From the IMG/VR virus record IMGVR_UViG_2609460125_000009: 64,000 nt of DNA. The stretch is one strand, 5' to 3'. The notes under the pieces are model-generated. The model was not told where the DNA came from, ran no database searches, and saw nothing but the letters and a program-made list of their open reading frames with translations. Within the stretch, counting starts at the first letter, position 1, and each line of letters starts with the position of its first letter. This DNA comes from a virus. Lineage: Duplodnaviria > Heunggongvirae > Uroviricota > Caudoviricetes. Below, one piece after another: positions 9,225 to 61,188 of this stretch. The position numbers and the translations under genes are program-made.

Positions 9225-9299
9225 GATGGTGTAGCTCAGCGGTAGAGCAGTTGGCTGTTAACCAACTGGTCGGTGGTTCGAATCCACCCACCATCGCCA
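9225..9299 (+). tRNA. tRNA-Asn (anticodon GTT)
   Basis: Manually folded cloverleaf: acceptor gatggtg/caccatc, D-arm gctc-agcggta-gagc, anticodon loop ctGTTaa, T-arm ggtgg-ttcgaat-ccacc, discriminator G + CCA. Confidence 0.85.
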
Positions 9300-9304
9300 A
9301 TTTA

Positions 9305-9391
9305 GGGGAGTTAGTCCGTAGAGGTAGCGGGGTAGACTGTAAATCTACTGTCATTGCGACTCGGGTGGTTCGACTCCATCACTCCCCACCA
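9305..9391 (+). tRNA. tRNA-Tyr (anticodon GTA), type II with long variable arm
   Basis: acceptor ggggagt/actcccc, anticodon arm gtaga-ctGTAaa-tctac, T-arm ggtgg-ttcgact-ccatc, discriminator A + CCA; D-arm pairing less clean. Confidence 0.75.
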
Positions 9392-9395
9392 AATT

Positions 9396-9471
9396 GCCGG
9401 TTTAGCTCAGTTGGTAGAGCGCCTGCCTTGTAAGCAGGATGTCAGCGGTTCGATCCCGTTAACCGGCACCA
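9396..9471 (+). tRNA. tRNA-Thr (anticodon TGT)
   Basis: acceptor gccggtt/aaccggc, D-arm gctc-agttggta-gagc, anticodon arm cctgc-ctTGTaa-gcagg, T-arm agcgg-ttcgatc-ccgtt, A + CCA. Confidence 0.85.
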
Positions 9472-9835
9472 ACACAACAGGTAAGAGCATTGGGCGAATC
9501 GGCGATACTGACCCACAAGCCCGTAAATCGATAGAGTCAGACCAGTGCTCTTACCGTTGTGAGGAAGTGCAGCTCTTTGAAGCAACCAGAAGATAAGCAT
9601 CTGGCTTCACAACACAACGATAAGATCATTACGGTTAATCGTCGTTCATGTGCACAATGACTGGTCGAAAGGTAGTGATCTTACCGTTGTGGTGGATTCG
9701 CAGACTGATGCGATAGCTTTCTTGGATGTTAGGGAAATGCGGCCGCAAATCTTCCCTTTCGCGAGCGGTGATCGTCCGTAGTCCTAATTGGCTGCACCGT
9801 ATGCCGGAGATTCAGTACCGGCCACCACAACGGCC

Positions 9836-9922
9836 GGAGAGTAGGGAGCATGGTGCTCAAGCGGTCTTGAAAACCGTCCCATTGCGCAAGCGATGATGGT
9901 TCGATTCCATTACTCTCCGCCA
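9836..9922 (+). tRNA. tRNA-like gene, probably tRNA-Ser (anticodon TGA), non-canonical D-arm
   Basis: acceptor ggagagt/actctcc, anticodon arm gcggt-ctTGAaa-accgt, long variable arm, T-arm gatgg-ttcgatt-ccatt, G + CCA; D-arm does not fold cleanly. Confidence 0.45.
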
Positions 9923-16433: not shown

Positions 16434-16613
16434 TCGTGCGTAAAGGATGTTTCGGCTCTCTTATCGCTGCTTCTGAAACTGGTAAGGCTTGTCTGGTGTG
16501 TCCAGACAAGCCCGATTGTCACCAATCAGCAAAAGAAGTTGCGATTTCGATGCATGGGAAGTTCGTAGGCTTCCCAAATGACAAAATCAAAAAAACCAGA
16601 AAGGTAAAAACAC

Positions 16614-19600
16614 ATGAAGGCACTGATGGTTCGAACTGACTTCTCACTTGGGGAGTCGGCTTTAAAAGCAGAAAACGCGGTGAAGATTGCCAGAGAAGCT
16701 GGCTACACCGCTGTAATTTCAGCAGATAGCATGAATATTGCGAGCGTTATTCCACTACAACGTGCCGCTGGTGACGACATGGCGGTTATTTGTGGTGTGA
16801 AACTAAACATCGTTGATGATCCCACATACGAGCACCGGGCTAAACTTGCTAAAGAGTCTAAGGGATGTATGGAATCATTGGAGCGAGGACGTAACTACTC
16901 GTTTACCGCTCTAATTAAAAATGAGAAAGGATATCGCGACATCTGCGAACTAATGACGGCGGCCAACACACGAGAACAGTTCTACTTTGTACCGCGTCTC
17001 TCGCTCGAACAGTTGGTTTCTACATATGCCAAAGGCAACATCATCCTGCTTACTTCCGACATCGGTAGCGTGTTCCAACGCAACGATTTTGCAAAAATCA
17101 TAAGCACACTGATTACAGCGGGTGGAAAAGACAACTTCTATAGTGTGGTTTATCCGCACCCTACCCCATTCTACGACCAGATTAACGTCCGGGCGATGAA
17201 AGTCGCCAGCGCATTGAAAATAGAGCCAGTGGCGTTCTATCCCGCTTATTACGAATCGATCGACGATGCAGACATTAAAGACATTGCGCACATGGTTACG
17301 AACAACATAAAAATCGACCAGCCGCATCGTCTGCGTATCCCCCACCAGCGAGATAACGCCATCAATGGTCGTCGCCATCTCCTTGAGGCGCTTAAAGCCT
17401 TCTCCGTTCGCATGGATGTGCCGGTAACAGCTGCAATGGCCTCAACAACGCAGGACTCCATTATCGATGCCTGCACATGGCGCTGGCATGAATTGCCACC
17501 AGCACTGCCCAAGATGGCAGACGACGAACCTGCAACGCTGATGAAACTGGCTGTTGCAGGGCTGCGTAAACGTCTTACCACAAAAGAGTTTGGATACACA
17601 CCACCTGCTTCTGAGAACAGGGTTTATGTTGAGCGGCTAAAGTACGAAATGGACACGCTGACTCGCCTGGGATTCTGTGGTTACTTCCTGATGGTACGCG
17701 ATCTGATGAATCACAGCCGTGAAACTGGCATTCCTGTCGGGCCTGGTCGTGGTTCCTCTGCCGGTTCTCTGGTGGCGTGGTGCATAGGCATAACCAACGT
17801 CGACCCAATCCGTCACGGTCTTCTGTTTGAGCGTTTCATCAACCCTGAGCGTCTCGACTTGCCGGATGCTGACTTGGACTTCAGCCAGGCACGTCGCCAT
17901 GAGGTGATCGAGTATCTGAATGAACGCTACGGCGAAGATTACGTTGCAGGCATTCCGAACTTCACCTATCTGGGCGCGGCATCTGCGCTGCGTGACACTG
18001 CACGTATTTACGGTGTCGATGCTGCGGATATGGCGGTATCCAAAGAGTTCAAGAATATGGAGGACGACAGCCTGTCTCTGGAAGAGCTGCGCGAGCAACT
18101 GGCCAGCCTGGACAAATACGCCACGAAAAACCCGGAAGCGTTCAAAGCGGCGTGTAAGCTGCAAAGCCTGATGCGTGGTTTTGGTCGTCACGCTGCGGGG
18201 ATGATCGTCGCTGGCGTTCCATTAGTAGAGCGCACGCCCGTCGAGCTGCGTGGCAATGCTCGATGTATTGCGTTCGATAAACGTTACTGCGAGGCGATGG
18301 GGCTGATTAAGTTGGACGTTCTCGGTCTGGCAACACTCGATCTTCTGGATAGCGCGAAACGCTACATCAAAGAGAGTACCGGTGAAGACATCAATCTCGA
18401 CGCTATCCCACTGGACGATCGCAAGGTTCTGGATGGGTTCGCTGCAGGGTACACGCAGGGCGTATTCCAGCTGGAGTCCGGCCCCATGCGTAAGCTGCTT
18501 AAAGATCTGGGCGGTGGCATCGAGCCAATGAGTTTCAAAACCGTTGTCGCAACTACCGCCCTCTTCCGACCGGGACCGATTCAATCCGGCATGTTGGATG
18601 ACTATGTTTCCGTTGCGAAAGGATTTATGACGCCTACATCACTACATCCTGTCTTGGATGAACTGACCTCTGAAACAAATGGAGTGATTCTCTATCAGGA
18701 ACAAACGATGAACGCAACAAGGCTTCTTGCTGGTTTCACAATGGCCGAGGCGGATGGTGTGCGTTCAGCAATCGGTAAGAAGAACATGGAAAAGATGAGG
18801 AGCATGGGTGAGAAATTTGTCATTCAGGCTCAAGCTGGGTGGATCGACGTAGAGCTTGAAAATGGCGCAATACAACGGATTCATCGCGCAGAACATTTTA
18901 AATGCGAGGACGGTACTCTGAGGACAGTTGAAGAGGCGTTGGAGCATGGAGTGAAGCTGCCAATGCCAGTTGTGCGCGTTACAACGTCACATCCAGGTCT
19001 GTCTGAGACGAAGGCAAAAGAGATATGGACTGCATTTGAGAAAAACGGAGCCTATCAGTTCAATAAATCACACTCCGTTGCTTATTCTTTAATCAGTTAT
19101 CAGTCTATGTGGCTAAAGACGCACTACCCTGCTGAGTTCTTCGCAGCTGCGCTCACCATTCTGGGCGAGGATAAGCATCAGGGGCTGGTGAAGGATGCGC
19201 TGACCTATGGCATTCGCGTATTGCCACCAGACGTTAATGTGTCATCTAACCGAATTGAGATCCGCACACTCGAAGACGGCAGTCAGGCACTGTATGCGCC
19301 ATTCTCTGCTGTGAAAGGCTGTTCTGAAAATGGTTGTCAGGCAATTATGCGTGCGCGTGAGAAAGTTGGTGGCAAATTCGAGTCAGTGGCACAATTCGAT
19401 GAAGCGGTCGAGAAGCGTGCATGTAACAGTCGTGTACGCGAGTCGCTTCATAAAGTAGGGGCTTTTGCGTCAATTGAGCCAGGCAGTCTGCCAGCAACTG
19501 ATCCTGAACGACTGCGCGACCAGGCTGAGCTGATGGGCAATCTCATCATTGACGCTGTTAAAGCATCACGTCCGTTCGAAATGAATCCTAAGCGTTCTGC

Positions 19601-20132
19601 CGAAATCAACGTACTCATGACACGTATGGCGGCTGAAATGGGCTTGGGTGAGGAGTTGATACGCCCGACTATTGGTATTAAACCCAAAATCATGATCATT
19701 CTGGACAATGCGAACGGCAATGACGCTCGTACCGGCTACTTCATGGAGAACGGATACGACGACTTTAAGGCAAAACTACTGACAGTTGGAGATCTGCGCA
19801 TGGGCGATCTTTATGTCACGGGTGTTTGTAAGAAGGTTAAGGACAAAGAGAAAGACTATACCAAAGACGAGATAGGCCAGTTCACAGACTTTATGCGGGA
19901 AGAAATTAATCTTGTACGACCAACCTACATTTTGACGTGTGGTAGTCGTTCAACCGCACTATTTAACAATAAGAGTAAACCATCAGATCTGATTGGTCGT
20001 AAGGAGTACTTCCCAGAGCTTGATGCAACCGTCTTCTACGGATTTAACCCGAATATCCTGTACTTCCGACCGGAAGAAGGAGAGCGACTGGAGGCCATTC
20101 TGGCTGATATCGCGGAGACAATAAATAAGTAA
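16614..20132 (+). CDS. DNA polymerase III alpha subunit homolog (DnaE-like) with a divergent C-terminal domain
   Basis: 1172 aa; N-terminal PHP domain, polymerase core motif GPGRGSSAGSLVAWCIGIT; conserved AAAAACACATG start context. Confidence 0.9.
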   Translation: MKALMVRTDFSLGESALKAENAVKIAREAGYTAVISADSMNIASVIPLQRAAGDDMAVICGVKLNIVDDPTYEHRAKLAKESKGCMESLERGRNYSFTALIKNEKGYRDICELMTAANTREQFYFVPRLSLEQLVSTYAKGNIILLTSDIGSVFQRNDFAKIISTLITAGGKDNFYSVVYPHPTPFYDQINVRAMKVASALKIEPVAFYPAYYESIDDADIKDIAHMVTNNIKIDQPHRLRIPHQRDNAINGRRHLLEALKAFSVRMDVPVTAAMASTTQDSIIDACTWRWHELPPALPKMADDEPATLMKLAVAGLRKRLTTKEFGYTPPASENRVYVERLKYEMDTLTRLGFCGYFLMVRDLMNHSRETGIPVGPGRGSSAGSLVAWCIGITNVDPIRHGLLFERFINPERLDLPDADLDFSQARRHEVIEYLNERYGEDYVAGIPNFTYLGAASALRDTARIYGVDAADMAVSKEFKNMEDDSLSLEELREQLASLDKYATKNPEAFKAACKLQSLMRGFGRHAAGMIVAGVPLVERTPVELRGNARCIAFDKRYCEAMGLIKLDVLGLATLDLLDSAKRYIKESTGEDINLDAIPLDDRKVLDGFAAGYTQGVFQLESGPMRKLLKDLGGGIEPMSFKTVVATTALFRPGPIQSGMLDDYVSVAKGFMTPTSLHPVLDELTSETNGVILYQEQTMNATRLLAGFTMAEADGVRSAIGKKNMEKMRSMGEKFVIQAQAGWIDVELENGAIQRIHRAEHFKCEDGTLRTVEEALEHGVKLPMPVVRVTTSHPGLSETKAKEIWTAFEKNGAYQFNKSHSVAYSLISYQSMWLKTHYPAEFFAAALTILGEDKHQGLVKDALTYGIRVLPPDVNVSSNRIEIRTLEDGSQALYAPFSAVKGCSENGCQAIMRAREKVGGKFESVAQFDEAVEKRACNSRVRESLHKVGAFASIEPGSLPATDPERLRDQAELMGNLIIDAVKASRPFEMNPKRSAEINVLMTRMAAEMGLGEELIRPTIGIKPKIMIILDNANGNDARTGYFMENGYDDFKAKLLTVGDLRMGDLYVTGVCKKVKDKEKDYTKDEIGQFTDFMREEINLVRPTYILTCGSRSTALFNNKSKPSDLIGRKEYFPELDATVFYGFNPNILYFRPEEGERLEAILADIAETINK

Positions 20133-22083: not shown

Positions 22084-22515
22084 GTGAACACTGATATTTT
22101 TTCTAAAATCATGGCCGATCTGGAGTTCGACCGCGACAACCTTGAGGAAGTATGGCGTAAACAGCCACGGCTTTTAATGGAGTATGGGTCAAAACTAGCG
22201 CAGGCAGATCGAGATGTCGCAGAGGCAAAACTTAACCTTGAAGCTGTTGAAGCAAAGCTATACGACACAGAGCGTAAGAACTTGAGTATGAACGGCATTA
22301 AGTTCAACGAGTCTGTACTGGACGCTAAGGTTAAAACAAACCCACAGTATCTGTCTAAACGGCAGAAGTTGGATGAAGCACGGCACATCGCAGACATATA
22401 CAAACATGCTGTCGCCGCCTTTTCGCATCGCCGAGACATGATCGTTCAGGCGTCAAAGATGGCCATCGTTGAATTAGAGCGATTAGGCTCTGAACGCTTT
22501 ATTACTCCCCGTTGA
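22084..22515 (+). CDS. hypothetical protein (GTG start)
   Basis: 143-aa ORF, AGGA upstream; first gene of the long plus-strand block. Confidence 0.5.
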   Translation: MNTDIFSKIMADLEFDRDNLEEVWRKQPRLLMEYGSKLAQADRDVAEAKLNLEAVEAKLYDTERKNLSMNGIKFNESVLDAKVKTNPQYLSKRQKLDEARHIADIYKHAVAAFSHRRDMIVQASKMAIVELERLGSERFITPR

Positions 22516-22632
22516 TTTTTGATAGATAATAAGTAAGTACTGATCTATCATTTAACAGCTCGAAAGAGCCACGAATGAACGAAAGCCCAACGCGCATAGC
22601 GCCATCGGCCAAATCACAACAAGGAGAAACAC

Positions 22633-23661
22633 ATGTCTAAGACATTACTTGATTTGCTTAACAAAACTCGTGAAGACATTGCCGCCAAACGTGGCAACAA
22701 CGTTGATCTGACTCGCTTAAAAGACGGCGTCAACTATATCCGCATCTTCCCGAATAAAGACGACCCAAACGGTAAGTTCTTCCAGACTTTCGGTATGCAC
22801 TACGTTAAGTATCAGAACGAGGAAGGTAAAGAAGCAACCAACGCTTATATTTGTGAGCAACATACTCACGGTCGCGCTTGTCAGCTATGCGAAATGGTGA
22901 TGGAAGGTCGCGCTCGTCACAAGGGTAACAAAGCAATGGAAGAACGCATCGGTCAAATGCGTGCCACTCCTCGCTACCTGGTCAACGGCATTCTTTCTGC
23001 TCGTGAGGATTTCGCAGATGCTGAGAAATGCCAGTTAATCGAGCTGCCGTCTACTGTATTCGATGATATCTGCAAAGCAATCACCGAAGACATCGCTGAT
23101 GATATCGGCAATCCACTGAGCAAAGAGGAAGGCTACGCATTCCTGATTAAACGTACTGGCTCTGGTCGCGATACCAAATATGACGTCTCGCCTAAGCGTA
23201 AAGTCTACAAAGGCGATATCGAAGATAAATTCTGGAACACCCAGCATGATCTGATCGCATACGCAAATCAGGCTGATGAAACTCGTCTTCTGTCGACAGT
23301 TCGCACTATGGGTCGTCTGATTGGCATCGCTGCACCAACTGCCGCAGCATCTGCACCAGCAATTTCCTCAACCGCGAAAACATCGGCTGCGGCACTACCT
23401 GGATTTGGCTCTGTCACTGGTCATACAGAAGGAGCGACGGCTGTAGCAACCGCGCACACACCGGCTTCTGAACCAACCAGTCTGGTTGATGAAGAAATCC
23501 TCCGTGCCGTTGAAACTGAATTTAAACCAGAGGCAAGTTCCGCTGCCGTTGCCGTATCAGTCAAAGAGTCTGAAGCAGTCGCAGCGACATCTGTAGCAAC
23601 CGCATCTGCGACGGAAGATGAAGGTCTGGATGACCTACTGAGAGAGCTGGACTCTCTGTAA
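22633..23661 (+). CDS. single-stranded DNA-binding protein, gp32-like
   Basis: Zn-binding C..H.H...C..C cluster (CEQHTHGRACQLC), Ala/Ser-rich linker and acidic C-terminal tail DEGLDDLLRELDSL. Confidence 0.65.
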   Translation: MSKTLLDLLNKTREDIAAKRGNNVDLTRLKDGVNYIRIFPNKDDPNGKFFQTFGMHYVKYQNEEGKEATNAYICEQHTHGRACQLCEMVMEGRARHKGNKAMEERIGQMRATPRYLVNGILSAREDFADAEKCQLIELPSTVFDDICKAITEDIADDIGNPLSKEEGYAFLIKRTGSGRDTKYDVSPKRKVYKGDIEDKFWNTQHDLIAYANQADETRLLSTVRTMGRLIGIAAPTAAASAPAISSTAKTSAAALPGFGSVTGHTEGATAVATAHTPASEPTSLVDEEILRAVETEFKPEASSAAVAVSVKESEAVAATSVATASATEDEGLDDLLRELDSL

Positions 23662-23678
23662 TCCCATTACGTGACCAG

Positions 23679-23707
23679 TAAGGCGTCTACGGACGCCTTA
23701 CTTTTTG
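23679..23707 (+). terminator. rho-independent terminator after the SSB gene
   Basis: taaggcgtc-tac-ggacgcctta then ctttttgg. Confidence 0.6.
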
Positions 23708-23721
23708 GAAGGAATGTACCG

Positions 23722-24666
23722 GTGAATTATCTCTTCGTAGATGGCAATAGCCTGGGTTATTACCACCAACAATCTGACAAATTGCACAACGGCGAAATGG
23801 AAGTACAGGCTGCTTTCGGCTTTGTTAAGAACGTCCGTCGTTATGCCTCCATCCTCCATGCCCGACCTATGATTCTTTGGGATGGATTTAGTGACAAGCG
23901 TCGCGACTTTTACCCGGACTACAAAGCAAATCGCGACGACGATCCTGATATGAAAAAGATGAAGGAAGGCTTTGCTATCCAGAAGCCATACATCCTCAAA
24001 ATGATGACCGCGCTTGGAGTTACCCAACTCATTGCAAAAGATGCAGAAGCGGATGATCTGGCCGGGCTGCTGGTATCCCGCATGGCACCGCAGCCAACCG
24101 TTGAACACATCTATCTGTTAACAGGCGATAGCGACTGGCTTCAGTTAGTTCGTGAAAACGTAAGCTGGGTAAGCCTGCGTGAAGACGCCAAAAACAAGCA
24201 GGTTAATTTTGAGCAATTTGCGGAGCTGACAGGATTCGCTACTCCTCGCGCATTTTTGGAAGCAAAAGCATTACAAGGCGATAAATCGGACAACATTAGC
24301 GGTGTTGGTGGCATTGGTGCTGGCGGTGCGAAAGAGCTGCTGCATGAATGGGGAAGTGTCGCAACGATGGTACGCGGCATCAACGACGGCTCAATCGTGG
24401 TTGACAAAGGACGCCATAAGACCGCCTTCAACAAACTAGCGAAGAATGCCTTCAACGAGAAAACAGGCTGTCGAATGCTCGAAGCGTTCAAGAGAAACAT
24501 CACGCTAATGAACCTGATTGAGACGAAGTTTCCGCCTACCGAAATCGAAACAATCAAAGGCAATCGTGACGTGAAAGCATTCGAGCAACTGTGCTACGAG
24601 CTGAATTTCCGTTCGTTCCTTGAAGACCTTGAAGTGTTTGTTCTTCCATTCGAAAGGTATTGCTAA
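23722..24666 (+). CDS. 5'-3' exonuclease / flap endonuclease (RNase H-like, FEN family)
   Basis: LFVDGNSLGYY N-terminal motif and TGDSDWLQLV helical-arch motif; start moved to GTG after the terminator with GGAAGGA RBS. Confidence 0.8.
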   Translation: MNYLFVDGNSLGYYHQQSDKLHNGEMEVQAAFGFVKNVRRYASILHARPMILWDGFSDKRRDFYPDYKANRDDDPDMKKMKEGFAIQKPYILKMMTALGVTQLIAKDAEADDLAGLLVSRMAPQPTVEHIYLLTGDSDWLQLVRENVSWVSLREDAKNKQVNFEQFAELTGFATPRAFLEAKALQGDKSDNISGVGGIGAGGAKELLHEWGSVATMVRGINDGSIVVDKGRHKTAFNKLAKNAFNEKTGCRMLEAFKRNITLMNLIETKFPPTEIETIKGNRDVKAFEQLCYELNFRSFLEDLEVFVLPFERYC

Positions 24667-24932
24667 TGCTTAAATCGATTATTAATGGCGCTACAACCAC
24701 CCCCACCCAACTGGCAAAAGAGATTGTCTTTTATCACGGTGAGTACGCTGTCATCGCACTGCCGTCAATTCTAGGCGCTGCCGGAATGAAAGCGACAGAT
24801 CGCGAGTTTGGATTAGTCAGCGAGCAGGTCGTAAAAATCCTCGCTCGTGTATCCAGACTCCTTAACCACGATGCGATTGTATTCGACGAATCCGCCGCTT
24901 TAAAACGAATCAACGAAACAAAAGGAGCCTGA
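24666..24932 (+). CDS. hypothetical protein (88 aa)
   Basis: ORF in track; ATG overlaps previous stop. Confidence 0.4.
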   Translation: MLKSIINGATTTPTQLAKEIVFYHGEYAVIALPSILGAAGMKATDREFGLVSEQVVKILARVSRLLNHDAIVFDESAALKRINETKGA

Positions 24933-24934
24933 TC

Positions 24935-27274
24935 ATGGCAAAAGGAAAATCCGCACTGGCACTTGCTCTGAAAAAGAAAATCGGTAGCAACGACGAAATT
25001 CAGAAAGTAACTCATTGGATTGACACAGGCTTTCCTCCGTTAAACAAAGCTATTTCCGGTCGTTACGATGGCGGTTTCCCATGTGGTCGTATCGTAGAAG
25101 TATTCGGGCCACCAAGCGCGGGGAAATGTGTTACCGCAGACACCATGCTGCTGACGGAGCGTGGAATGGTAACAGTGAAAGAGTTGTTTGAGATTGAAGG
25201 GTACAAAGCGACATGCACTACTCGCGATGTAGAGCATAACGTTGGACTCATCAATGAAAATGGCGTGATAGAGAAGACCTCACACCTGACATGGAACAAC
25301 CGTCGCAAATTCAAGCGTATTAAGCTGGCATCAGGCGGTTATATCGAGGCTACGTTCCGTCACCCAATCCGTGTGGTTGACGACTTAGGTAATGTCGTCT
25401 GGCGACATGCTGAAAAAATCAGTGTAGGCGACACGATTCCTTCAATGGTTGGCACACATCAATTCGGCGATCAGCACCTGGATGCCAATATCGCAAAACT
25501 GATGGGCTATTTAATTGCTGACGGATACGTGGCCTCTGAAAATTCAGTGAATTTTTCTAACACAGATCCTTTCATCAAGGATGAGTACTACCGCCTCATT
25601 TCGCTGGTATCAGACAAGATGCCAGTTACGAGAAAACATAACGGCTCGGAAGACCATGTGCTGTTTAGCAAAGAGGTGCGTTCGCTGCTTTTTAAAGAAT
25701 ATGGTCTGGAGTATGAGAAAGCTGCTGGCAAGCAGGTTCCGTTGAGTGTGCGTCGCGCCAATAGCGAGGCTCAAATTGCATTCCTTCGCGGCTACTTTGA
25801 GCTGGAATGCCACGTCAATGATGGTCGCTGCATTGAGGTTGTGAGCGCGAGTGGGCTGCTGCTACAGCAAATTCGCCTCATGCTCCTGAATCTGGGGATT
25901 ACGTCAACTATCTCTGAAAAACACGTCGCGGGTTATGAAAATACATATTACCGGCTGTCATTCAGTGGCTCTAATTACGACCTTTTTCTGTCAACGATTG
26001 GTTTCGAATCTCCGGCACGTTTATCAGTGGCAACCAAACGGGACATTGGTTTTGACCGCACTTACTCAGGCTATGTTCCGCACATCAGCGGCTTAGTGAA
26101 ATCACTCTACGAGTCGCTCACCAAGACCACCCGTGAAGACTACGCTCTGGTAGACCACGTTATTGGCCGCGGCGATCGTGTCGGAATAGACAAACTGCGA
26201 GAAATCTATGTCTCCTTCATTGGCAGAAAGAATCGTTTTAACGAGCATCTGTTTGCACAACTGGCAGCGGTAATTGGCTCTAACTTGTTCTACGACGAAG
26301 TCGTGGCTATTGAGGAAGGTGAAGCACCAACGTTCGACGTAGCGATGCCGGAAACACACTCTTTCTGGTCTAACGGGATTATCAGCCACAACACATTCCT
26401 TGCAACAGCAGCGATGATCTCCGCTCAAAAACAAGATGGTCTGGCGGTATTCCTCGATCATGAAAACAGTTTTGACGTTGGCCTGGCTGTAGCCAATGGC
26501 CTGAACGCAGATGAGGATGACGGTCAGTGGGTATACAAGCAGCCAGATACCTTCGAAGACTCTGTAGAGTTGATCGGCACAATACTTAAATTGGTTCGTG
26601 ATGAAGAGCTTATCCCCGAATCAGCACCTATCTGTATCGTGGCTGACTCTCTTGCGTCTATGGTTCCGAACTCCAAAGCCGAGAAGTTCGAAAAGATGGC
26701 TGAAGGCACAGCCAAAGACAAAGATCAGCTAAACATGAACGACAATACGGCACTGGCTCGTGCGACGAGTGCGAACTTCCCTACTCTGGCTTTGTGGGCA
26801 CGCAAATACAACGCCTGCATCATCTTCTTGAATCAGGTTCGCACAAAAATCGGTGTAATGTTTGGCGACCCTACTACGTCGCCAGGTGGAGATTCACCGA
26901 AGTTCTACGCTTCTGTACGTATCCGTCTTGGTGCATCGGTGATGAAGGATGGTAAAGAGAAGATCGGCCAGGACGTAGGCGCAGAATGCATCAAAAACAA
27001 AGTTGCACCACCGTATGGCAAATGCACCTGGAAATTCTACTTCGATCCTACTCGTGGCCTCGACGTTATCGAGTCGCTCGTCGAGTACATGCTGGAAGAA
27101 GGATACCTGCCAAAGAACGCCAGCGGTCGAGTAGAAATTGGTGACAAGAAATACACCAAATCACAGATCGTCGAGATGTATCGGGAGAAGCCACTAGCTG
27201 AAATCATTGCGGCTTTACAGGCAATCGACGACCGGAGATCAAAAGACAATCCCACCGAGTCAGTAGAAGAGTAA
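24935..27274 (+). CDS. RecA-family recombinase interrupted by an intein
   Basis: Extein: GPPSAGK|TFLATAAM P-loop and FLNQVRTKIGVMFGDPTTSPGGDSPKFYASVR, closely matching the RecA core; 422-aa insertion between K64 and T. Confidence 0.85.
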   Translation: MAKGKSALALALKKKIGSNDEIQKVTHWIDTGFPPLNKAISGRYDGGFPCGRIVEVFGPPSAGKCVTADTMLLTERGMVTVKELFEIEGYKATCTTRDVEHNVGLINENGVIEKTSHLTWNNRRKFKRIKLASGGYIEATFRHPIRVVDDLGNVVWRHAEKISVGDTIPSMVGTHQFGDQHLDANIAKLMGYLIADGYVASENSVNFSNTDPFIKDEYYRLISLVSDKMPVTRKHNGSEDHVLFSKEVRSLLFKEYGLEYEKAAGKQVPLSVRRANSEAQIAFLRGYFELECHVNDGRCIEVVSASGLLLQQIRLMLLNLGITSTISEKHVAGYENTYYRLSFSGSNYDLFLSTIGFESPARLSVATKRDIGFDRTYSGYVPHISGLVKSLYESLTKTTREDYALVDHVIGRGDRVGIDKLREIYVSFIGRKNRFNEHLFAQLAAVIGSNLFYDEVVAIEEGEAPTFDVAMPETHSFWSNGIISHNTFLATAAMISAQKQDGLAVFLDHENSFDVGLAVANGLNADEDDGQWVYKQPDTFEDSVELIGTILKLVRDEELIPESAPICIVADSLASMVPNSKAEKFEKMAEGTAKDKDQLNMNDNTALARATSANFPTLALWARKYNACIIFLNQVRTKIGVMFGDPTTSPGGDSPKFYASVRIRLGASVMKDGKEKIGQDVGAECIKNKVAPPYGKCTWKFYFDPTRGLDVIESLVEYMLEEGYLPKNASGRVEIGDKKYTKSQIVEMYREKPLAEIIAALQAIDDRRSKDNPTESVEE
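25127..26392 (+). mobile_element. intein with LAGLIDADG homing-endonuclease domain inside the RecA P-loop
   Basis: Begins with Cys directly after GPPSAGK, ends ...SHN followed by Thr; internal LAGLIDADG-type motifs MGYLIADGYV and FLRGYFELECHV. Confidence 0.75.
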
Positions 27275-27280
27275 ACACAA

Positions 27281-27304
27281 GGCGTCCACAGGACGCCTTT
27301 TTTA
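27281..27304 (+). terminator. rho-independent terminator after the RecA gene
   Basis: ggcgtcc-aca-ggacgcc then ttttttat. Confidence 0.7.
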
Positions 27305-28402: not shown

Positions 28403-28419
28403 CTCCCCTAAAAAGTTCA

Positions 28420-28444
28420 GGCGTCCAGTTGGACGCCTTTTTTA
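28420..28444 (+). terminator. rho-independent terminator after the SPFH gene
   Basis: ggcgtcc-agtt-ggacgcc then ttttttat. Confidence 0.7.
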
Positions 28445-43597: not shown

Positions 43598-44011
43598 ATG
43601 GCAATAGGTATGTATGTCTTATGCGAAATTGAAGGTGTGCTGGCAAATACCAGCCATCGTAAATCTGTATCTGACGCGGATGCAGGCCAGCTCATTGCCG
43701 GTGATGAACTCATTTTCCCCACCAGCCGTATGTTGCGTGGTTTTGCTCGCTCAGGGGCTGAAGTGGTGCTTATCAGTAGCCGCTCTGAAACTCTTGAAGC
43801 GCCCACTAAACGATGGTTGAAAGATTTTGGTGTTGATTACGACTGGCTTCATCTCGTACCGAATGGCGTCAGTTATGAGAAGCATATTAAGCGCACATTA
43901 GCGGAGCATAAAGGCGATCTGCTTATCGCTGCGCTGGTGCACGATCCTCGACTCCGTGCCGCTTTAGCTGACTCTCATCATAGACCGGTCATCTATGAGG
44001 TGAGCAAATGA
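43598..44011 (+). CDS. hypothetical protein
   Basis: ORF with ATG 2 nt after thyA stop; start uncertain. Confidence 0.4.
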   Translation: MAIGMYVLCEIEGVLANTSHRKSVSDADAGQLIAGDELIFPTSRMLRGFARSGAEVVLISSRSETLEAPTKRWLKDFGVDYDWLHLVPNGVSYEKHIKRTLAEHKGDLLIAALVHDPRLRAALADSHHRPVIYEVSK

Positions 44012-44484
44012 AGATGATAGCTGCTGTTGGCCGTAACTATGAGATCGGCATAGCGAACGAACTGCCCTGGCGTTGTTCTACCGATCTGAAGCTATTTAAG
44101 AGACTCACCAAAAACGCCACTGTCGTTATGGGGCGTAAAACGATGGAAAGTCTCAAACGCCCTCTTCCAGAGCGTCATAACCTCGTTTTGACGCGCTCTC
44201 ATGGCTTTGTACCAAATGGATTCTACCCTGCTGGTGTGGATGATGTGTTGCGATTACCAGAGCCTGTGTGGGTGATTGGCGGGGAACAAATTTACTCGCT
44301 ATTCATGCCGCATGTTGAAGAGATTTGGCTCTCCCACATCGGCGTTGATGTGCCAAACGCCGATGCATTCTTCCCGGCAAGCATGATGCGTAATTTAGGC
44401 TTTGTGCCTGTTGAAACAGTTTTTACCCAACGAGCCAGCGAGGAAGAGCTTGGCTTTTCGCAGATCGTATACAGAAGGTCGTAA
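44008..44484 (+). CDS. folA: dihydrofolate reductase
   Basis: MIAAVGRNYEIG ... LPW ... VVMGRKT ... VIGGEQIY motifs. Confidence 0.85.
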   Translation: MKMIAAVGRNYEIGIANELPWRCSTDLKLFKRLTKNATVVMGRKTMESLKRPLPERHNLVLTRSHGFVPNGFYPAGVDDVLRLPEPVWVIGGEQIYSLFMPHVEEIWLSHIGVDVPNADAFFPASMMRNLGFVPVETVFTQRASEEELGFSQIVYRRS

Positions 44485-45128
44485 TGGATTACCGGATTGG
44501 GATCACTGGTGCTCAGGGCAGTGGGAAAACAACCCTGGCAAAATATATCGACAAACATTACGGAATCCCTTACGTGGATGCTGGTGTCGGAAGTTTGATG
44601 AGCCGACTCGGTGTTCGAGTAGGTGAGTCTATGCCTCTATATGAGCGGCTTCAGATTCAAATGGAAATAGCAAAGCATATAGAGCTACTTACGCGTGGTG
44701 TTGAAGGCTTTGTTATCGATCGCACACCTGCTGATGTTATGGCCTACACGTTGGATTTGGTCGGCCATACCAATGAAGATCGATGTATTGAGTTAGCCCT
44801 CGATATCGAAAAGTTTTGCCACAAAACTGCTATTTCAAACTTTAACGCCATTGCTGGCTTACGCCCGGGAGTCGCTCTCTCAGAGCGAGATTACTTGCGA
44901 TCACAACGAGCATCATTAGACCGTCTGTATGTCGCTCGTATTGATGCGTTGATGTGCGGGGAACTGACAAAAATTCACCTGCATCCGCAAAGGGGGGATC
45001 TGCAAACCTTCGTCGTTTCCAACCGATATCGCACGGTTGAAGCAAGAGCCAGATCAGTGATGAGAATGCTAGATAACGCTGTAGAAAAGATAGAAAACCG
45101 GTTCTGTGGCCGAGTGACCGTTCATTAG
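44484..45128 (+). CDS. P-loop NTPase, putative (deoxy)nucleotide kinase
   Basis: Walker A GITGAQGSGKTT at N-terminus; sits in the nucleotide-metabolism cluster. Confidence 0.5.
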   Translation: MDYRIGITGAQGSGKTTLAKYIDKHYGIPYVDAGVGSLMSRLGVRVGESMPLYERLQIQMEIAKHIELLTRGVEGFVIDRTPADVMAYTLDLVGHTNEDRCIELALDIEKFCHKTAISNFNAIAGLRPGVALSERDYLRSQRASLDRLYVARIDALMCGELTKIHLHPQRGDLQTFVVSNRYRTVEARARSVMRMLDNAVEKIENRFCGRVTVH

Positions 45129-52671: not shown

Positions 52672-54357
52672 ATGAATACAGCCCTTTCTATCATCGACGA
52701 TGCCAGCTCAAACACGGCTATCGACTATCGTCAGGAAATGAATGTCATCCACGAAATTGTGGCCGAGTGCGAGAAAGAGATCGCCTTCATGTATCAGGTA
52801 CACGACTTCGTTTATGGCGACGAACGCCACAACATGATTAATCGCCTGCTGAGACTAAACCATCGACCAGATGAAGATCGCTCGCGTTTAAATCGAGGTT
52901 GGTTGGATAAAGTCGATCTGGAATGGGTGAAACAGAATATTTGGGCCGAGTACTGGAGGAAGGTCACGGACATGACTAACGTTTTGCTGATCATGCCAGC
53001 TTCCCGTCGAGATGAGTGGCGCGAGCAGTTTATAGAGGGCAAACAGGAAGTCATCAAAACTGACAGAACCGGCTACCAGATGAAGGTTAAAGAGTTCGTT
53101 GGTGTACCGGAGTTCAAAGCAGAAACGGTCATACCCACGATGCTTAATTTGCTGAATGACAGGCACAAATATCTCTCTGAGCGCGTGTATGGCTTGTTTA
53201 AGGCGCTGAGTCCTGCGCACAAGACAAATAAGACAAACGGTTTCAGCGAGCGTCTGATAATCGCTGACTGCATTTCTGATTTCTGGCGGGACAGCGTTAG
53301 CGTGAACTATCGCAAAGAGGACTACATCGACGATCTGCGTGTCTTGCTTCATTTCTTCGCGCACAAAGAATTTATTACCATCAACCGCACTGCTGAGGTG
53401 CTATCAGCTGCGTATAGGGCAAACGACTGCCAGACCGGTGACTGGATGAACGTCGATGGAAATCTGATGCGCGTGAAGATGTTCAAGAACGGCAACGTTC
53501 ACTTTGAAATACATCCTGACGTGGCCTGGAAGTTGAATGAGGTGCTGGCTTACAGTATGCCTGCTGCAATCCCCGCGCCATGCCGAACTGCGCCAAAAAC
53601 ACGGGCACCAAAGCAGTTCGGTTTAATCCAGAAGACGATCTCCGTGCCGGTTCGCACTGCGCTTCGTGACGGGCGATTGAGCAAAGACAAAGGCGTATGG
53701 TACTTCTCTGATTCAGCTCTCCAGAAGTCGCAGGTGGAAGAGCTTGAGCGCACACTGAGCTTCATTGGCGGCGTGCAGGAGAAAAAGCACTGGCAGTTCC
53801 CGTATGAGATCGGCCATACGCTAAATACGATTGTGGCTACCGGATTAATACCGGATACAAAATCACACCAGTTCTACCCTACCCCACGCTTGATTGCTGA
53901 GTACGTTGCCAGAGCCACTGAATTGAAGTCTGGTGAGAAGCTGCTGGAGCCTCAAGCCGGACGTGGGGATCTTCTGGCCTATATCAACGCCGATCTGGAA
54001 GATGTTACCTGCATAGAAATCGCACCTCTCTTCGCTGATATCCTGCGCGGAAAAGGGTATACGAACACGATTTGCTGCGACTTCATAAAGTGGTCTGAGG
54101 ACAACGTAGGTTATCAGTTCGACAAAATCGTTATGAACCCGCCGTACTCGCTTGGTCGTCATAGAGAGCACACGCTGGCTGCGCTGGGGCATCTGAAAGT
54201 CGGCGGGCGTCTTGTAGCAGTATTGCCGGGCACTGCGCCAATACTGGACTGGATGACGATGGATAATTACGTTTATGCCAGAGGGAAGTCGTTTACCAAC
54301 GAGTTTGAAGACACAGGGATCACAGTCAGCGTATACGTTTTCAAACGCGTTAAATGA
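52672..54357 (+). CDS. fusion protein with C-terminal N6-adenine DNA methyltransferase domain
   Basis: C-terminal SAM-binding LLEPQAGRGDL and catalytic NPPY; N-terminal ~400 aa of unknown function. Confidence 0.65.
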   Translation: MNTALSIIDDASSNTAIDYRQEMNVIHEIVAECEKEIAFMYQVHDFVYGDERHNMINRLLRLNHRPDEDRSRLNRGWLDKVDLEWVKQNIWAEYWRKVTDMTNVLLIMPASRRDEWREQFIEGKQEVIKTDRTGYQMKVKEFVGVPEFKAETVIPTMLNLLNDRHKYLSERVYGLFKALSPAHKTNKTNGFSERLIIADCISDFWRDSVSVNYRKEDYIDDLRVLLHFFAHKEFITINRTAEVLSAAYRANDCQTGDWMNVDGNLMRVKMFKNGNVHFEIHPDVAWKLNEVLAYSMPAAIPAPCRTAPKTRAPKQFGLIQKTISVPVRTALRDGRLSKDKGVWYFSDSALQKSQVEELERTLSFIGGVQEKKHWQFPYEIGHTLNTIVATGLIPDTKSHQFYPTPRLIAEYVARATELKSGEKLLEPQAGRGDLLAYINADLEDVTCIEIAPLFADILRGKGYTNTICCDFIKWSEDNVGYQFDKIVMNPPYSLGRHREHTLAALGHLKVGGRLVAVLPGTAPILDWMTMDNYVYARGKSFTNEFEDTGITVSVYVFKRVK

Positions 54358-54418
54358 TAGGTAAATACTTACCTAATTTGTGTAAGAATGTAGTTACTAA
54401 ACGATAAGAGAAAAACAC

Positions 54419-55123
54419 ATGAACAACCTCCAGTTAGAGCATTTTAACGTCACAGGCCATTCTGATTTTCCTTTCAAGTTTACATTGAAAGGTTATGCAG
54501 AGGATGCGGTAGGCCAGATCATTATTGATAAAGGCATCGTTAAGTTTGAGGGGGATTTTGATGAATCCGCGAAAACATTCATAGACTTCGTTGCCAAACG
54601 TTGGAGCGAGCAATGGAAAAACCTGGAAAAGCGCGCCAATGAGTTTGATCGGTTCATGGATGCAATGGATACAGCAAAAGAGGCTCTTGATGCCGGGACT
54701 CCGTTAGATCTGGAGTCACTTTTCAACGGCGAAGTGGCCTCTGCGATGTTCGCCACCATGTTCGCGGGTGAGTTCGTCCGCAGCGGTGCCAAAAACTACC
54801 TTGAGCTGGATTACAACGTCCCTGCAATTGGCGATTTCGTCGTTACCATCCAACGCAAAGAAGGTAAGACGCCAGGTGAACGCGTCGCAGAGCTTGAGGC
54901 CGTTGTGGATCAGCGTAACGGAGAGTGTGACCGTTTGATCAACGAGCTTCATGCACTTCGGGAAGAAAGAATATGTGCGGGTAGCAATACACGTAATGCA
55001 GCGGATATCTACTTCCAGTTAGTTGAGGAATGCCAGATTCCACCAGGTGGCTCTCTTGTCGATTACGTCAGACATTTAATGGCGGAAGTTAACTCCAGCC
55101 ATAAAGATGGTGAGGTGCGCTGA
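54419..55123 (+). CDS. hypothetical protein
   Basis: 234 aa; conserved GAGAAAAACACATG context. Confidence 0.55.
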   Translation: MNNLQLEHFNVTGHSDFPFKFTLKGYAEDAVGQIIIDKGIVKFEGDFDESAKTFIDFVAKRWSEQWKNLEKRANEFDRFMDAMDTAKEALDAGTPLDLESLFNGEVASAMFATMFAGEFVRSGAKNYLELDYNVPAIGDFVVTIQRKEGKTPGERVAELEAVVDQRNGECDRLINELHALREERICAGSNTRNAADIYFQLVEECQIPPGGSLVDYVRHLMAEVNSSHKDGEVR

Positions 55124-55503
55124 TGTTTGGCATTGACGCACAGCGTATAGCCGCTTTTGCAAAAAGCCCTCTTGATAATCCCTTGTCTCGTAGTGAGCAA
55201 ATGGAGCTGGCAAGGCTTTTTCTTCACATTCAAAAACAGGCAGACATTTTCAATAACATGCCTAATCAACCTATTCTGGATGGTCACATCCAGATGGTCA
55301 TTAACAGTCATGAGAAAGGCTGGGCTGCAATCGTCCCCTGCACAATTACATACAAGTTGGCGAAAGAGGTTCAAGAGTTTCGAAAAGCCAGTGTCGAATC
55401 GGAGTCTACCAAAGCCGCAATAAACACTCTTATTCGCATGGGGTTCACATGGACCGGTGGAGCCTACTGGCAAGCACCTCACCCCATTTTATCCGGCAAT
55501 TAG
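55123..55503 (+). CDS. hypothetical protein
   Basis: 126 aa; GGTGAGG RBS; overlapping stop/start. Confidence 0.5.
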   Translation: MFGIDAQRIAAFAKSPLDNPLSRSEQMELARLFLHIQKQADIFNNMPNQPILDGHIQMVINSHEKGWAAIVPCTITYKLAKEVQEFRKASVESESTKAAINTLIRMGFTWTGGAYWQAPHPILSGN

Positions 55504-55622
55504 ACGCTACAAATCCTTCGGCATGAATAAATAAAGGCCATAAGTTGTGGCCTTAAATAAATTGTTTTCTACCTTTTCTTATTTGTGAAAATAACAACAA
55601 CTAGAAAACAACGGAGTTAAGA

Positions 55623-56264
55623 ATGTCTAGTATTTCCGAAGCTCATATGTTCGCCGCTGGCGCTCATGGTGGCGTTGGTCAGAAAAGAAAATATACCGGC
55701 GAAGACTACATCAACCACCCGGTTGCTGTCCGAGAGATTGTTGCATTGCATGACGGAACCGTGGAGATGCAAATCGCGGCGCTTCTGCATGATGTGGTCG
55801 AAGACACCCATGTAACCATAGAGATGGTTCGTGATCACTTCGGTGAGCGCGTAGCTGAAATGGTTCAGGCTCTGACCAACATTGCAAGGCCAGAAGACGG
55901 CAATCGAATACAGCGTTTCATCATCAATGTCCGGGAGCTGGAGCAAAATCTCGACATGCAGACGCGCATGATCAAGCTGGCTGACCTGCTCGACAATACC
56001 TCTTCTATCGTGAGTCGCGATCCCGAGTTTTCAGCTGTCTACCTCGCAGAGAAAGAACTGATGCTGGACGTACTCTTTCACGGCAAAGAGATTGGTGCCA
56101 ACGCTGATGTTGTCGAGTACATGGAGAGGATAGGTATAGAACACCCGTTGCTATTAAGCGCAATGGCGAAAGTCACTGAAGGTATTGCGCTTCTGAAACC
56201 GGTACACATCAAACGTTATGAAAAACACAAATCGCTGATCTGGAGCGCGTGGGAGGCTGCATGA
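55623..56264 (+). CDS. HD-domain phosphohydrolase, SpoT-hydrolase-like (small alarmone hydrolase candidate)
   Basis: AALLHDVVEDT matches the RelA/SpoT hydrolase HD motif; ~210 aa with no synthetase domain. Confidence 0.65.
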   Translation: MSSISEAHMFAAGAHGGVGQKRKYTGEDYINHPVAVREIVALHDGTVEMQIAALLHDVVEDTHVTIEMVRDHFGERVAEMVQALTNIARPEDGNRIQRFIINVRELEQNLDMQTRMIKLADLLDNTSSIVSRDPEFSAVYLAEKELMLDVLFHGKEIGANADVVEYMERIGIEHPLLLSAMAKVTEGIALLKPVHIKRYEKHKSLIWSAWEAA

Positions 56265-56803
56265 AGGTCGAAAAAATAGATGTTCTTTCCTTTGTGCTGA
56301 CGGATCTGGAACGCCTCGATCCGGTTCGAGTGATGATTGAAAACTACGAACCTGGTAAGGGAAGAATCACCATCATCTGCTACGGAAAAGCGTGGACTGC
56401 GGCTTGGTTTGCTATGGGCGGTGATGATGTGCAGACGTTCATTAAGCGGGTCAGCAACGAGTATCTAATCGGCTATTTCGACTCTCAACTGCGAAGCACG
56501 GTCGACGATGACAACGATGCAAATCTGCTTTTCGTGAAGTCAGAAATCATAAAGTTACGAAGAGAGAGAGAAATCGACGCCGTACTGGCTCGTGAAATGT
56601 GGGACGAGGCGGAAAACACCGATGACGTAAAAGAAAGCTGCTGTTGTTTCGGCGTCGGTAACAAACTGCTGAATCTCTTTGGTGATGATCCGTGGTATGC
56701 CGACTGGCCAACGGTACCAAACCCGAAATACCAGTATCTGGAACGCATTGTGAACGCGGTACGTGAAGGGCTGAAAGAGTTAGATAAGTTAGAGGCATCG
56801 TAA
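56261..56803 (+). CDS. hypothetical protein
   Basis: Start moved to the ATG with GGGAGG RBS. Confidence 0.5.
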   Translation: MKVEKIDVLSFVLTDLERLDPVRVMIENYEPGKGRITIICYGKAWTAAWFAMGGDDVQTFIKRVSNEYLIGYFDSQLRSTVDDDNDANLLFVKSEIIKLRREREIDAVLAREMWDEAENTDDVKESCCCFGVGNKLLNLFGDDPWYADWPTVPNPKYQYLERIVNAVREGLKELDKLEAS

Positions 56804-57303
56804 TGAGAGAGAAAATCAAGAACCCGGTCGTCGTATTGTATAAACGGGAAACCAGCGATTCTTATGCGGTATCCATCACTGATGGAAGCCAGAACATGCA
56901 CGATGGTCTGCTAATGGCCTCCGTATCTCCTGATGATTCTGACTACCCTTTCGCCACTTTCGCTATGGTTGGTTACTACATGGCTGCCGAAATTGAGAAG
57001 TTGCGAGCGCAGAGAGACGCATTAGCGGCGGAGAATGCAGCCCTGAAAGAATCTGAGCGAGCATTCGATGCGATGTGTGCCGAGGAACACGGAGATAATT
57101 GGGTTAGCGAATTAACGGAGACTCCAGCCACCGATGCTTTTCTGGCTGAAGTACGTGCGCAGGGCGTGGATATGGCTCGTAACGCGATGATTGATTTTGT
57201 TGATGGTGAAGTTGGGCCAAACAAGAACGTTCCGGGGCTGATTAGAGGCGCAGAGATATGCGTAAGTATTGCTGAACAGCTTCGTAAAGGAGTCATCCAG
57301 TGA
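56803..57303 (+). CDS. hypothetical protein
   Basis: 166 aa; GAGG RBS. Confidence 0.5.
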   Translation: MREKIKNPVVVLYKRETSDSYAVSITDGSQNMHDGLLMASVSPDDSDYPFATFAMVGYYMAAEIEKLRAQRDALAAENAALKESERAFDAMCAEEHGDNWVSELTETPATDAFLAEVRAQGVDMARNAMIDFVDGEVGPNKNVPGLIRGAEICVSIAEQLRKGVIQ

Positions 57304-57701
57304 GCAAGATTGACTATCAGGCACTGCGTGAGGCGGCAGAGCGTGCAATTCCGGCAATGGAACGCCTGTTAATGTTGCCAGTTGATGATGATCTGATATG
57401 CGAACAGGAACTTAAAGATAGCGGTGTTGATATTGATGCCCTCAACGCCTTCAAATTTCTGGCCGGACCAGAAACCGTGCTGGCACTACTGGATGAGATC
57501 AACGCATTAGAGGAAACGCGTATCAACGATGTTTGCCGTATTGCGGAACTAACAAAACAACTGGAGTTGGCAAAATCAAAACTCAACGAGCAGCGTGAGT
57601 ATTACGAGGGCGTTATCTCGGATGGAAGTAAGCGCATAGCCGCTCTTCTTCGCAAGGACAATCTTGCCAGCGCCACGAACATTGAAGGTGAAAGAAAATG
57701 A
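57300..57701 (+). CDS. hypothetical protein (GTG start)
   Basis: 133 aa; AGGAG RBS. Confidence 0.45.
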
Positions 57702-58021
57702 CCACATCGCACTCTGCTATTACCCAAGAAAAAGCCTTCAACATACTCGAACGACTAGAGACGCTCGCTACGGAGGAGGAGATATCCCCGGAGAAACTGG
57801 TTGAGTTCAGCCGTGTGATATTGCGTCGCAAGAACGATATGGAGCGGCTGACATCTGGCGCTCCATCCTTATCAGTCAGGCGAACACTTTGTTGCAGCTT
57901 CTGCAACAAATCCCAGTACGCCGTCAAAAAGTTAATTGCTGGGGACGCCGTTTTCATCTGCGACGAGTGTGTGGATGTGTGCAACAGAATTATCCGGGGA
58001 GAGAAAGAGAGATCAGCATGA
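57698..58021 (+). CDS. ClpX N-terminal zinc-binding-domain (ZBD)-like protein without ATPase domain
   Basis: C-terminus [35 protein letters not shown] aligns with the E. coli ClpX ZBD ([34 protein letters not shown]). Confidence 0.7.
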
Positions 58022-58548: not shown

Positions 58549-58730
58549 GAACACTAGAGGTTCGCGCTGAAGACGTAATCCCTGGTGATGTGCTCATAAC
58601 ATCTAAAGGTCAACAATGTGCGGTTAAATCTTTTTGGATGGAAAATGACAAAGTGACTCTGTTCGGTACGGATGGTTCCGAAACTGATTATGACTACGAC
58701 GAATTGCTTGTTGTTGAGAGAGCTGCCTAA
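58545..58730 (+). CDS. hypothetical protein (61 aa)
   Basis: AGGGGG RBS. Confidence 0.4.
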   Translation: MRTLEVRAEDVIPGDVLITSKGQQCAVKSFWMENDKVTLFGTDGSETDYDYDELLVVERAA

Positions 58731-61170: not shown

Positions 61171-61188
61171 CATTAAGAGGCGAGTATT

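Follow-up and report, generated by a model that had tools for sequence, protein, structure and literature searches.

The 779-amino-acid (aa) open reading frame (ORF) at positions 24935-27274 (+) of the IMG/VR virus record IMGVR_UViG_2609460125_000009 (Caudoviricetes), of which a stretch of 64,000 nucleotides (nt) was analyzed (hereafter the window), encodes a RecA/UvsX-like recombinase with an inserted intein of 422 aa. Considering its residues, its predicted structure, and its distribution among related alleles, we propose with considerable confidence that this insert is a class-1 intein with a double-motif LAGLIDADG endonuclease, residing in the recombinase of an SSU5-like phage-plasmid, and that it is a selfish element in an active phase of homing.

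An intein in the P-loop of a UvsX/RecA-like recombinase

The intein occupies positions 25127-26392 (+; precursor aa 65-486), as delimited by Pfam and NCBIfam profiles, intein-free alleles, and an AlphaFold2 model, and has a double-motif LAGLIDADG homing endonuclease nested in its HINT splicing domain. It is inserted in frame, over 1266 nt, between the lysine and the threonine of the Walker A motif, with the junctions GPPSAGK/C...SHN/TFLATAAM (slashes mark the points of insertion). An initial annotation of the window had described a full-length intein with these coordinates, this length, and these Cys...His-Asn ends with canonical splice junctions, and translation of the ORF confirmed all of them. 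The same annotation had suggested an intein profile search. On the insert alone, this returned Pfam Intein_splicing (4.1e-12, 46.6 bits, cut-off 35.8), Pfam LAGLIDADG_3 (4.3e-18, 65.8 bits, cut-off 22.5), the intein N-terminal model TIGR01445 (1.7e-08), and the intein C-terminal model TIGR01443 (16.9 bits, cut-off 15.6).

The N-extein (24935-25126, +) comprises aa 1-64 of the recombinase and ends with the Walker A stretch GPPSAGK, which aligns to GPESSGK72 of Escherichia coli RecA. The C-extein (26393-27274, +; aa 487-779 and the stop codon), delimited by the RecA profile and the RecA alignment, begins with Thr+1, which is the Walker A threonine and the splicing nucleophile at once. When joined, the exteins align without gaps to E. 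coli RecA across GRIVEIYGPESSGKTTL, with GPPSAGKT opposite GPESSGKT of RecA, and the insertion point is equivalent to K72/T73 of that protein (numbering verified on the K-12 recA), in agreement with the earlier placement directly after the Walker A lysine. Besides, the Pfam RecA profile matches the intact ORF in two pieces with 125.5 bits, and the sequence with the intein removed in one piece with 145.7 bits (cut-off 27), which bears out that removal restores a contiguous P-loop. From its sequence, the precursor should have a mass of 86.6 kDa, and the ligated exteins and the intein should weigh 39.0 and 47.5 kDa, respectively; the values of the precursor and of the ligated exteins correspond to the ~86 and ~39 kDa proposed before. 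No second intein and no recombinase paralogue were detected in the window when all six-frame ORFs were searched with phmmer and with a hidden Markov model built from alignment A1. The base composition was uninformative as to a foreign origin of the insert, the G+C content of the intein (0.47-0.50) being no different from that of the exteins.

The spliced extein sequence scores 153.7 bits against TIGR02012, the bacterial RecA equivalog, thus below its cut-off of 325.3, and matches phrog_97, 'UvsX-like recombinase', with an E value of 1.2e-91. Because of these two results, the neighboring recombination module, and the plasmid-only location of the gene (both described below), we assign the host gene to the SSU5-like phage-plasmid recombinases and not to recA. 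As judged from these matches, the host protein is a member of the RecA superfamily, namely a phage UvsX/RecA-like recombinase, and no orthologue of bacterial RecA, which qualifies the term RecA homolog used in the initial annotation.

Splicing residues and endonuclease domain

Two pattern scans of a viral-contig collection gave 29 occupied alleles and 61 empty-site matches, 60 of them with usable flanks. Cys1 of block A (25127-25129, +), the nucleophile in the N-S acyl shift, is invariant in the 29 occupied alleles and is also present in relatives at 27-45% identity. Block B contains TFRH (intein aa 76-79; 25352-25363, +), and this TxxH motif is retained in every relative of alignment A1 that covers the region. 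Motif reading, relatives, and alleles agree on blocks F and G (26333-26392, +), which read FDVAMPETHSFW...GIISHN, with the penultimate His421 and the terminal Asn422. Together with Thr+1, the class-1 splicing set is complete, with block F represented by FDVAMPETHSFW and block G by GIISHN. By sequence criteria, the insert is therefore a class-1 intein, for which splicing itself is predicted.

The LAGLIDADG motifs noted earlier were located at intein aa 125-135 and 219-230. Motif 1, LMGYLIADGYV (25499-25531, +), contains the candidate catalytic acid D132, which is retained in all alleles that cover it. Motif 2, FLRGYFELECHV (25781-25816, +), was assigned by alignment and model and contains the candidate catalytic acid E227, which aligns with the Asp at the catalytic position in the motifs of PI-PkoII and of the VMA inteins. 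The two motifs, each with an acidic residue, are spaced 94 aa apart, within the ~90-120 aa that define double-motif enzymes, and an ELE(C/S) second motif is kept in most full-length relatives. The 29 occupied alleles have no stops or frameshifts, and C1, TFRH, D132, E227, and HN/T are kept in them wherever covered. The dN/dS ratio is ~0.15 over the intein and ~0.19 in the endonuclease part. The sole length variant among the 29 is the allele of IMGVR_UViG_3300028993_000030, which is shorter by 6 nt (2 aa), in frame.

A HINT fold is predicted by the AlphaFold2 model of the intein (11 sequences; mean pLDDT 81, pTM 0.85). In a Foldseek search against the PDB, the best match of this model was TliVMA (7qss; E 7.8e-20, TM 0.68), followed by PI-PfuI (1dq3), PI-PkoII (2cw7), and PI-SceI (1vde), with E values over the four from 7.8e-20 to 1.5e-08. 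These inteins share the combination of a HINT domain and a LAGLIDADG endonuclease with the one in the window, but they are only 10-21% identical to it, have other host proteins and target sites, and have been biochemically tested. The predicted splicing domain on its own matches mini-inteins, including the Pyrococcus horikoshii RadA intein (4e2t), and the nuclease part matches I-DmoI and intein endonucleases. In the model, the motif 1 helix (aa 120-131) stops just before D132 and the motif 2 helix (aa 213-227) stops at E227, while aa 131-150, where strands of a pseudo-dimeric alpha-beta-beta-alpha-beta-beta-alpha fold would follow motif 1, are of low confidence, with no strands predicted.

Natural alleles without the intein

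The allele of Escherichia phage CMS-2020a lacks the 1266 nt. With 1074 nt, it has the same length as the spliced window gene, from which it differs by 27 nucleotides and 1 amino acid. The stretch FGPPSAGKTFLATAAM is uninterrupted in CMS-2020a, SSU5, E. coli SP15_P2, p09EL50 (E. coli O104:H4), Klebsiella pRM-3, Enterobacter pEh27_1, and a Yersinia pestis plasmid, and the empty allele of SP15_P2 (1074 nt) is 100% identical to the window in the N-extein and 99.2% in the C-extein. The empty site reads GGGCCACCAAGCGCGGGGAAA/ACGTTCCTTGCAACAGCAGCG in SP15_P2, ...AGTGCAGGGAAA/ACG... in the CMS-2020a type, ...GCTGGTAAA/ACCTTCCTG... in the Klebsiella type, and ...GCCGGTAAA/ACCTTTTTG... in the SSU5/Yersinia type. 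A comparison with intein-free homologs had also been proposed in the initial annotation, and the 1074-nt alleles fix the insertion point precisely.

Horizontal spread of the intein

Against the Klebsiella phage vB_KpnS_p4727, the intein of the window shows 97.0% nucleotide identity, whereas the N-extein is only 79.7%, the C-extein ~82-83%, and the neighboring genes 71-79% identical, with sharp identity steps at both intein junctions. The differences amount to 38 of 1266 nt in the intein vs 182 of 1032 nt in the exteins (Fisher p = 1e-33). The synonymous divergence (dS) is 0.09 for the intein and 1.1-1.8 for the exteins in the comparisons with Klebsiella, Enterobacter, and a second E. coli lineage. 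The same pattern is seen over plasmids of Escherichia, Klebsiella, and Enterobacter, where intein DNA is 96-100% identical while the exteins are at 76-86%, and in the 16 complete occupied viral-contig alleles, with exteins 75.9-100% (median 85.1) and inteins 95.7-100% (median 97.9) identical. Besides, extein clusters at 97% identity mix occupied and empty alleles (6 and 18, 3 and 13, and 3 and 9, respectively). Judged by these identities, the transfer of the intein between diverged recombinase alleles is far younger than the divergence of the alleles themselves. The earlier proposal of a likely active homing nuclease is thus supported indirectly but strongly, by an intein identity of 97% against extein identities of 80-86%, by the low dN/dS ratio, and by the catalytic acids kept in the 29 alleles.

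The junctions carry a further mark (window flanks 25100-25126 and 26393-26420). The core GCGGGGAAA/ACATTCCT is present in all correctly registered occupied alleles, which represent at least four backbones, and this exact core is absent from 60 of 60 empty viral-contig alleles. Between matched backbones, the differences are confined to positions near -7, -4, and +3, and sometimes +6/+7, which are of the donor type, while recipient bases are retained at -10 and +9. We read this junction marker as a co-conversion tract of <10 nt per side (~7-9 nt). Tracts this short, observed on at least four backbones, are unusual for nuclease-driven homing.

The allele of the E. coli plasmid pRHBSTW-00180_3 (CP056788.1; locus stretch 543-2882) is a mosaic whose crossover lies within the intein. 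Its N-extein and intein codons 1-267 are of the window type, the remaining intein codons (from 268) follow the Klebsiella/Enterobacter type, and the first part of its C-extein matches the Enterobacter/pYLPD4a type.

Distribution in plasmids and genomes

Occupancy in plasmids was taken as the number of intein-DNA matches vs gene matches, because a query with the spliced gene is unfit for this purpose, the C-extein alone covering 82% of it and thus passing the 80% class. Counted by BLAST coverage classes, the recombinase gene occurs in ~731 plasmid records and the intein DNA in 248, all intein matches being at 90-100% identity. The intein was found in 123 of the 231 gene-carrying plasmids of Escherichia, 71 of 269 in Klebsiella, 41 of 85 in Enterobacter, 6 of 22 in Citrobacter, 1 of 40 in Salmonella, and 0 of 63 in Yersinia. 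Possibly, the empty site of the SSU5/Yersinia type is poorly suited as a target, or plasmids of these lineages seldom encounter intein carriers.

Among 5,426 complete E. coli genomes, 251 carry the recombinase gene, and all 253 places are plasmid-borne, none being chromosomal. Intein DNA is present in 114 of these 251 genomes, on plasmids every time. The chromosomal recA of E. coli was considered as a homing target and is an unlikely one, since its P-loop DNA differs from the empty sites at 18-24 of 42 positions and chromosomal intein copies were not found.

The window gene is 100% identical to a gene on the E. coli plasmid pEcoFMU073332c (NZ_CP017847.1) and 98-99% identical to genes of the Escherichia phages Cyrano and PhiR41_1. 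Most copies are named 'LAGLIDADG family homing endonuclease' or 'hint domain-containing protein' by PGAP. The NCBI name 'intein-containing recombinase RecA', for which a model exists, is found on only some copies, e.g., in Enterobacter. Since PGAP names the copies after the nuclease or hint part, the recombinase is hidden in most annotations of these phage-plasmids, a widespread enterobacterial family.

Proposed mechanism and alternative explanations

Based on these findings, we propose the following scheme. Translation would yield the 86.6-kDa precursor, in which the P-loop is split and which would be inactive as an ATPase. Cys1 would undergo the N-S acyl shift, after which the hydroxyl of Thr+1 would attack the thioester. 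Cyclization of Asn422, helped by His421, and an O-N shift would then leave a native Lys-Thr peptide bond, giving the 39-kDa recombinase and the free 47.5-kDa intein. When intein-positive and intein-free phage-plasmids share one cell, the free intein or the precursor would cut the P-loop-coding DNA of the intein-free allele, and repair from the intein-positive copy would copy in the intein, along with only ~7-9 nt of flanking extein per side. In this scheme, splicing would probably be constitutive and do no harm to the host gene. The statement in the initial annotation that recombinase activity is conditional on splicing follows soundly from the insertion position, as the precursor should be inactive until spliced because of its split P-loop and the roles of K72 and T73 in RecA.

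Several points weigh against a selfish, actively homing intein. Motif 2 reads ELEC, D-G being commoner in this position, and the model is less confident at residues 131-150, just after motif 1, so that nuclease activity is not guaranteed. The shared junction marker could mean selection on those codons and not co-conversion, and the identity step could in principle stem from ordinary gene conversion between co-resident plasmids, with no nuclease-made break. The plasmid counts are of coverage classes and not of curated alleles. As for published work, Topilina et al. (2015; PMC4513877) list and model the intein only, and we found no experimental test of the splicing or cleavage of this intein in the papers examined.

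A different role for the insert, which we regard as unlikely, would be that of a conditional splicing switch, i.e., post-translational control of the recombinase and its ATPase of the kind described for the RadA intein of P. horikoshii, which has the same place in the P-loop. The precursor would be held unspliced, e.g., in the plasmid state, and splicing, gated by single-stranded DNA, by the redox state of Cys1, or by UvsY-like or gp32-like partners, would switch the recombinase on only in lytic replication or after DNA damage. The insertion point is that of the RadA c1 intein, where native exteins, temperature, and single-stranded DNA control splicing; the cysteines Cys1, C30, C228, and C235 of the intein and C50 of the N-extein would permit redox control; and the intein is common and persistent, being present in about one third of alleles. 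On the other hand, it is polymorphic in very close extein lineages, as in the empty SP15_P2 allele, and it is dispensable, being absent from every one of the 63 Yersinia plasmids and from all but one of the 40 Salmonella plasmids. Its intact endonuclease and recent horizontal spread are fully explained by selfish homing, and a RadA-like inhibitory arrangement of extein and intein could not be modeled for the E. coli precursor, according to Topilina et al. If gated splicing were nevertheless true, the archaeal RadA switch would have a counterpart in a mesophile that is amenable to genetics.

It is less probable still that the insert is a splicing-dead or nuclease-dead relic, which either knocks out the recombinase or is kept by vertical descent and ordinary recombination. 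Endonuclease regions are clearly decayed in the distant relatives P0007, P0012, and P0013, and inactive copies do exist, as the E. coli plasmid CP059946.1 has an IS1 inside the intein and an Escherichia albertii plasmid has a truncated C-extein. However, neither the window nor any of the 29 viral-contig alleles has lost a catalytic splicing residue or one of the two LAGLIDADG acids, no stops occur, the intein dN/dS is 0.15, and vertical inheritance cannot yield an intein identity of 97% within exteins that are 80% identical. Finally, the idea that the 422-aa region is an integral domain of the recombinase family has only the continuous reading frame in its favor and is ruled out, because close alleles lack exactly the insert, dozens of homologues without exactly these 1266 nt have a normal GPPSAGKT P-loop, and the region matches intein and LAGLIDADG profiles and folds.

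The two inactive copies can be described further. In CP059946.1 (locus stretch 732-1502), the IS1 of ~770 bp is bounded by IS1-type terminal repeats and by a duplicated target of 8 bp, AATTTTTC, and lies at about intein codon 142, thus disrupting both the intein and the recombinase. In the E. albertii plasmid p3RM15115 (CP043243.1), a 62-kb derivative, the intein is intact and the C-extein frame ends after ...KFEKMAE, leaving a decayed recombinase.

The intein is found nearly identical over Escherichia, Klebsiella, Enterobacter, and Citrobacter backbones and might be a natural tracer of the frequency of encounters between different phage-plasmids in one cell. Besides, the intein-positive and intein-free alleles of E. 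coli with 99-100% identical exteins, together with the variants of the empty site, offer a convenient mesophilic system for studying intein homing, target-site tolerance, the unusually short co-conversion tracts, and any conditional splicing.

Relation to known inteins

A RecA intein 'c2 (65-486)' has already been listed by Topilina et al. (2015; Nucleic Acids Res 43:6631, Table 1; PMC4513877), who name as carriers eight E. coli strains, including MS 145-7, as well as Enterobacter cloacae BWH 29, Enterobacter sp. MGH 26, and Salmonella enterica 557928. On the MS 145-7 plasmid NZ_CP146657.1, the window gene has a counterpart of 99.6% identity and the intein one of 100%. By these identities and the same coordinates (aa 65-486), the intein of the window is the c2 element, and its detection a correct rediscovery of something already known. 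As a discovery it is of little weight, since the same coordinates were catalogued in 2015 and NCBI annotation models recognize the intein. In the text of Topilina et al., the host is treated as bacterial RecA and the word 'prophage' does not occur, whereas here the gene is plasmid-borne and stands in an SSU5-like recombination module; the evidence of ongoing homing comes from the present analysis. The literature searches that joined the intein with SSU5 or phage-plasmids returned no paper placing it there, and a review of inteins in human pathogens makes no mention of the enterobacterial element. The placement of the host gene in an SSU5-like phage-plasmid recombination module and the evidence of ongoing homing drawn from allele comparisons are therefore a modest addition.

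The RadA intein (c1) of P. horikoshii resembles the window intein in its insertion point at the P-loop end of a RecA-superfamily recombinase, in Thr+1, and in its HINT fold. It differs in being a mini-intein without endonuclease whose splicing is conditional on temperature and single-stranded DNA, whereas the window intein is full-length and comes from a mesophile. The RadA c1 and RecA c2 inteins were judged to be independent invasions by the authors of PMC4513877.

An intein directly behind the Walker A lysine corresponds to what the literature describes as the 'classic' insertion into P-loops. The P-loop inteins of Herelleviridae helicases (Twort, Listeria LMTA-148, Bacillus Goe25) and of the RecA of Bacillus phage fHSPT3 are likewise inserted at this point (GGK/C...HN/T or S) and have the block F/G pattern PETHSF...HN in common with the window intein. 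They differ in their low identity (31-34% over 422 aa), in their Gram-positive hosts, and, for three of the four, in a helicase as host protein. Metagenomic and chromosomal RecA P-loop inteins (P0004-P0009 and P0011-P0013) share the site GK/C...SHN/TT at 27-45% identity, and the nearest non-enterobacterial relatives, at 40-45% identity, are in RecA-family proteins. Among these RecA P-loop inteins, ELE(C/S) is found in most full-length members, while the endonuclease is lost in P0007, P0012, and P0013, and some of the host proteins are true bacterial RecA, including its C-terminal domain, unlike the host in the window. The protein-homologue search gave 13 matches, with no full-length 779-aa representative, and was used for relatives and not for counting.

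The RecA inteins of Mycobacterium tuberculosis (PI-MtuI, a LAGLIDADG-type enzyme; site a) and Mycobacterium leprae (site b) are similar in being inteins in RecA. They are, however, inserted at aa 252 and aa 206, respectively, and the model NF007072 gives only 24.6 bits on the window intein.

Genomic context

The recombinase gene is preceded by a Shine-Dalgarno-like AAGGAG (24922-24927, +), read directly from the sequence, with the ATG 7 nt downstream. The upstream recombination module (22084-24932, +) was recognized by PHROG matches, and its gene order and names are as in phage Cyrano and SSU5. It comprises, all on the plus strand, a UvsY-like mediator candidate (22084-22515), a gp32-like single-stranded DNA-binding protein (22633-23661), and a 5'-3' exonuclease (23671-24666), these three with PHROG matches, as well as a small ORF (24660-24932). 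Directly 3' of the recombinase gene is a terminator-like hairpin followed by a T run (27279-27299, +), detected by a consensus scan only. A second such hairpin follows the next gene (28419-28438), and the two have nearly the same stem, AGGCGTCC...GGACGCCT, and can be read as terminators on both strands.

The window contains four clustered tRNA genes at 9225-9922 (+), namely Asn-GTT, Tyr-GTA, Thr-TGT, and Ser-TGA. Overall, it is ~98.7% identical to pEcoFMU073332c and is, by this measure, its close relative. One accessory region differs (53119-61151). In the window, it has genes for a DUF4942 protein of 561 aa, a DUF551 protein, and a protein with an HD domain, besides several ORFs without family. 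Near the matching region, pEcoFMU073332c has a type I restriction-modification system instead. In its stretches 55185-58476, 74501-74977, and 98852-102370, which correspond to window positions of about 60500-63800, 44000-44500, and 16600-20100, respectively, the plasmid also carries a full-length metG (methionine-tRNA ligase), apbC, dnaE (DNA polymerase III alpha), nrdAB, thymidylate synthase, and a phage-type dihydrofolate reductase annotated as the trimethoprim-resistance gene DfrA51, and thus large housekeeping-like genes on a phage-plasmid.

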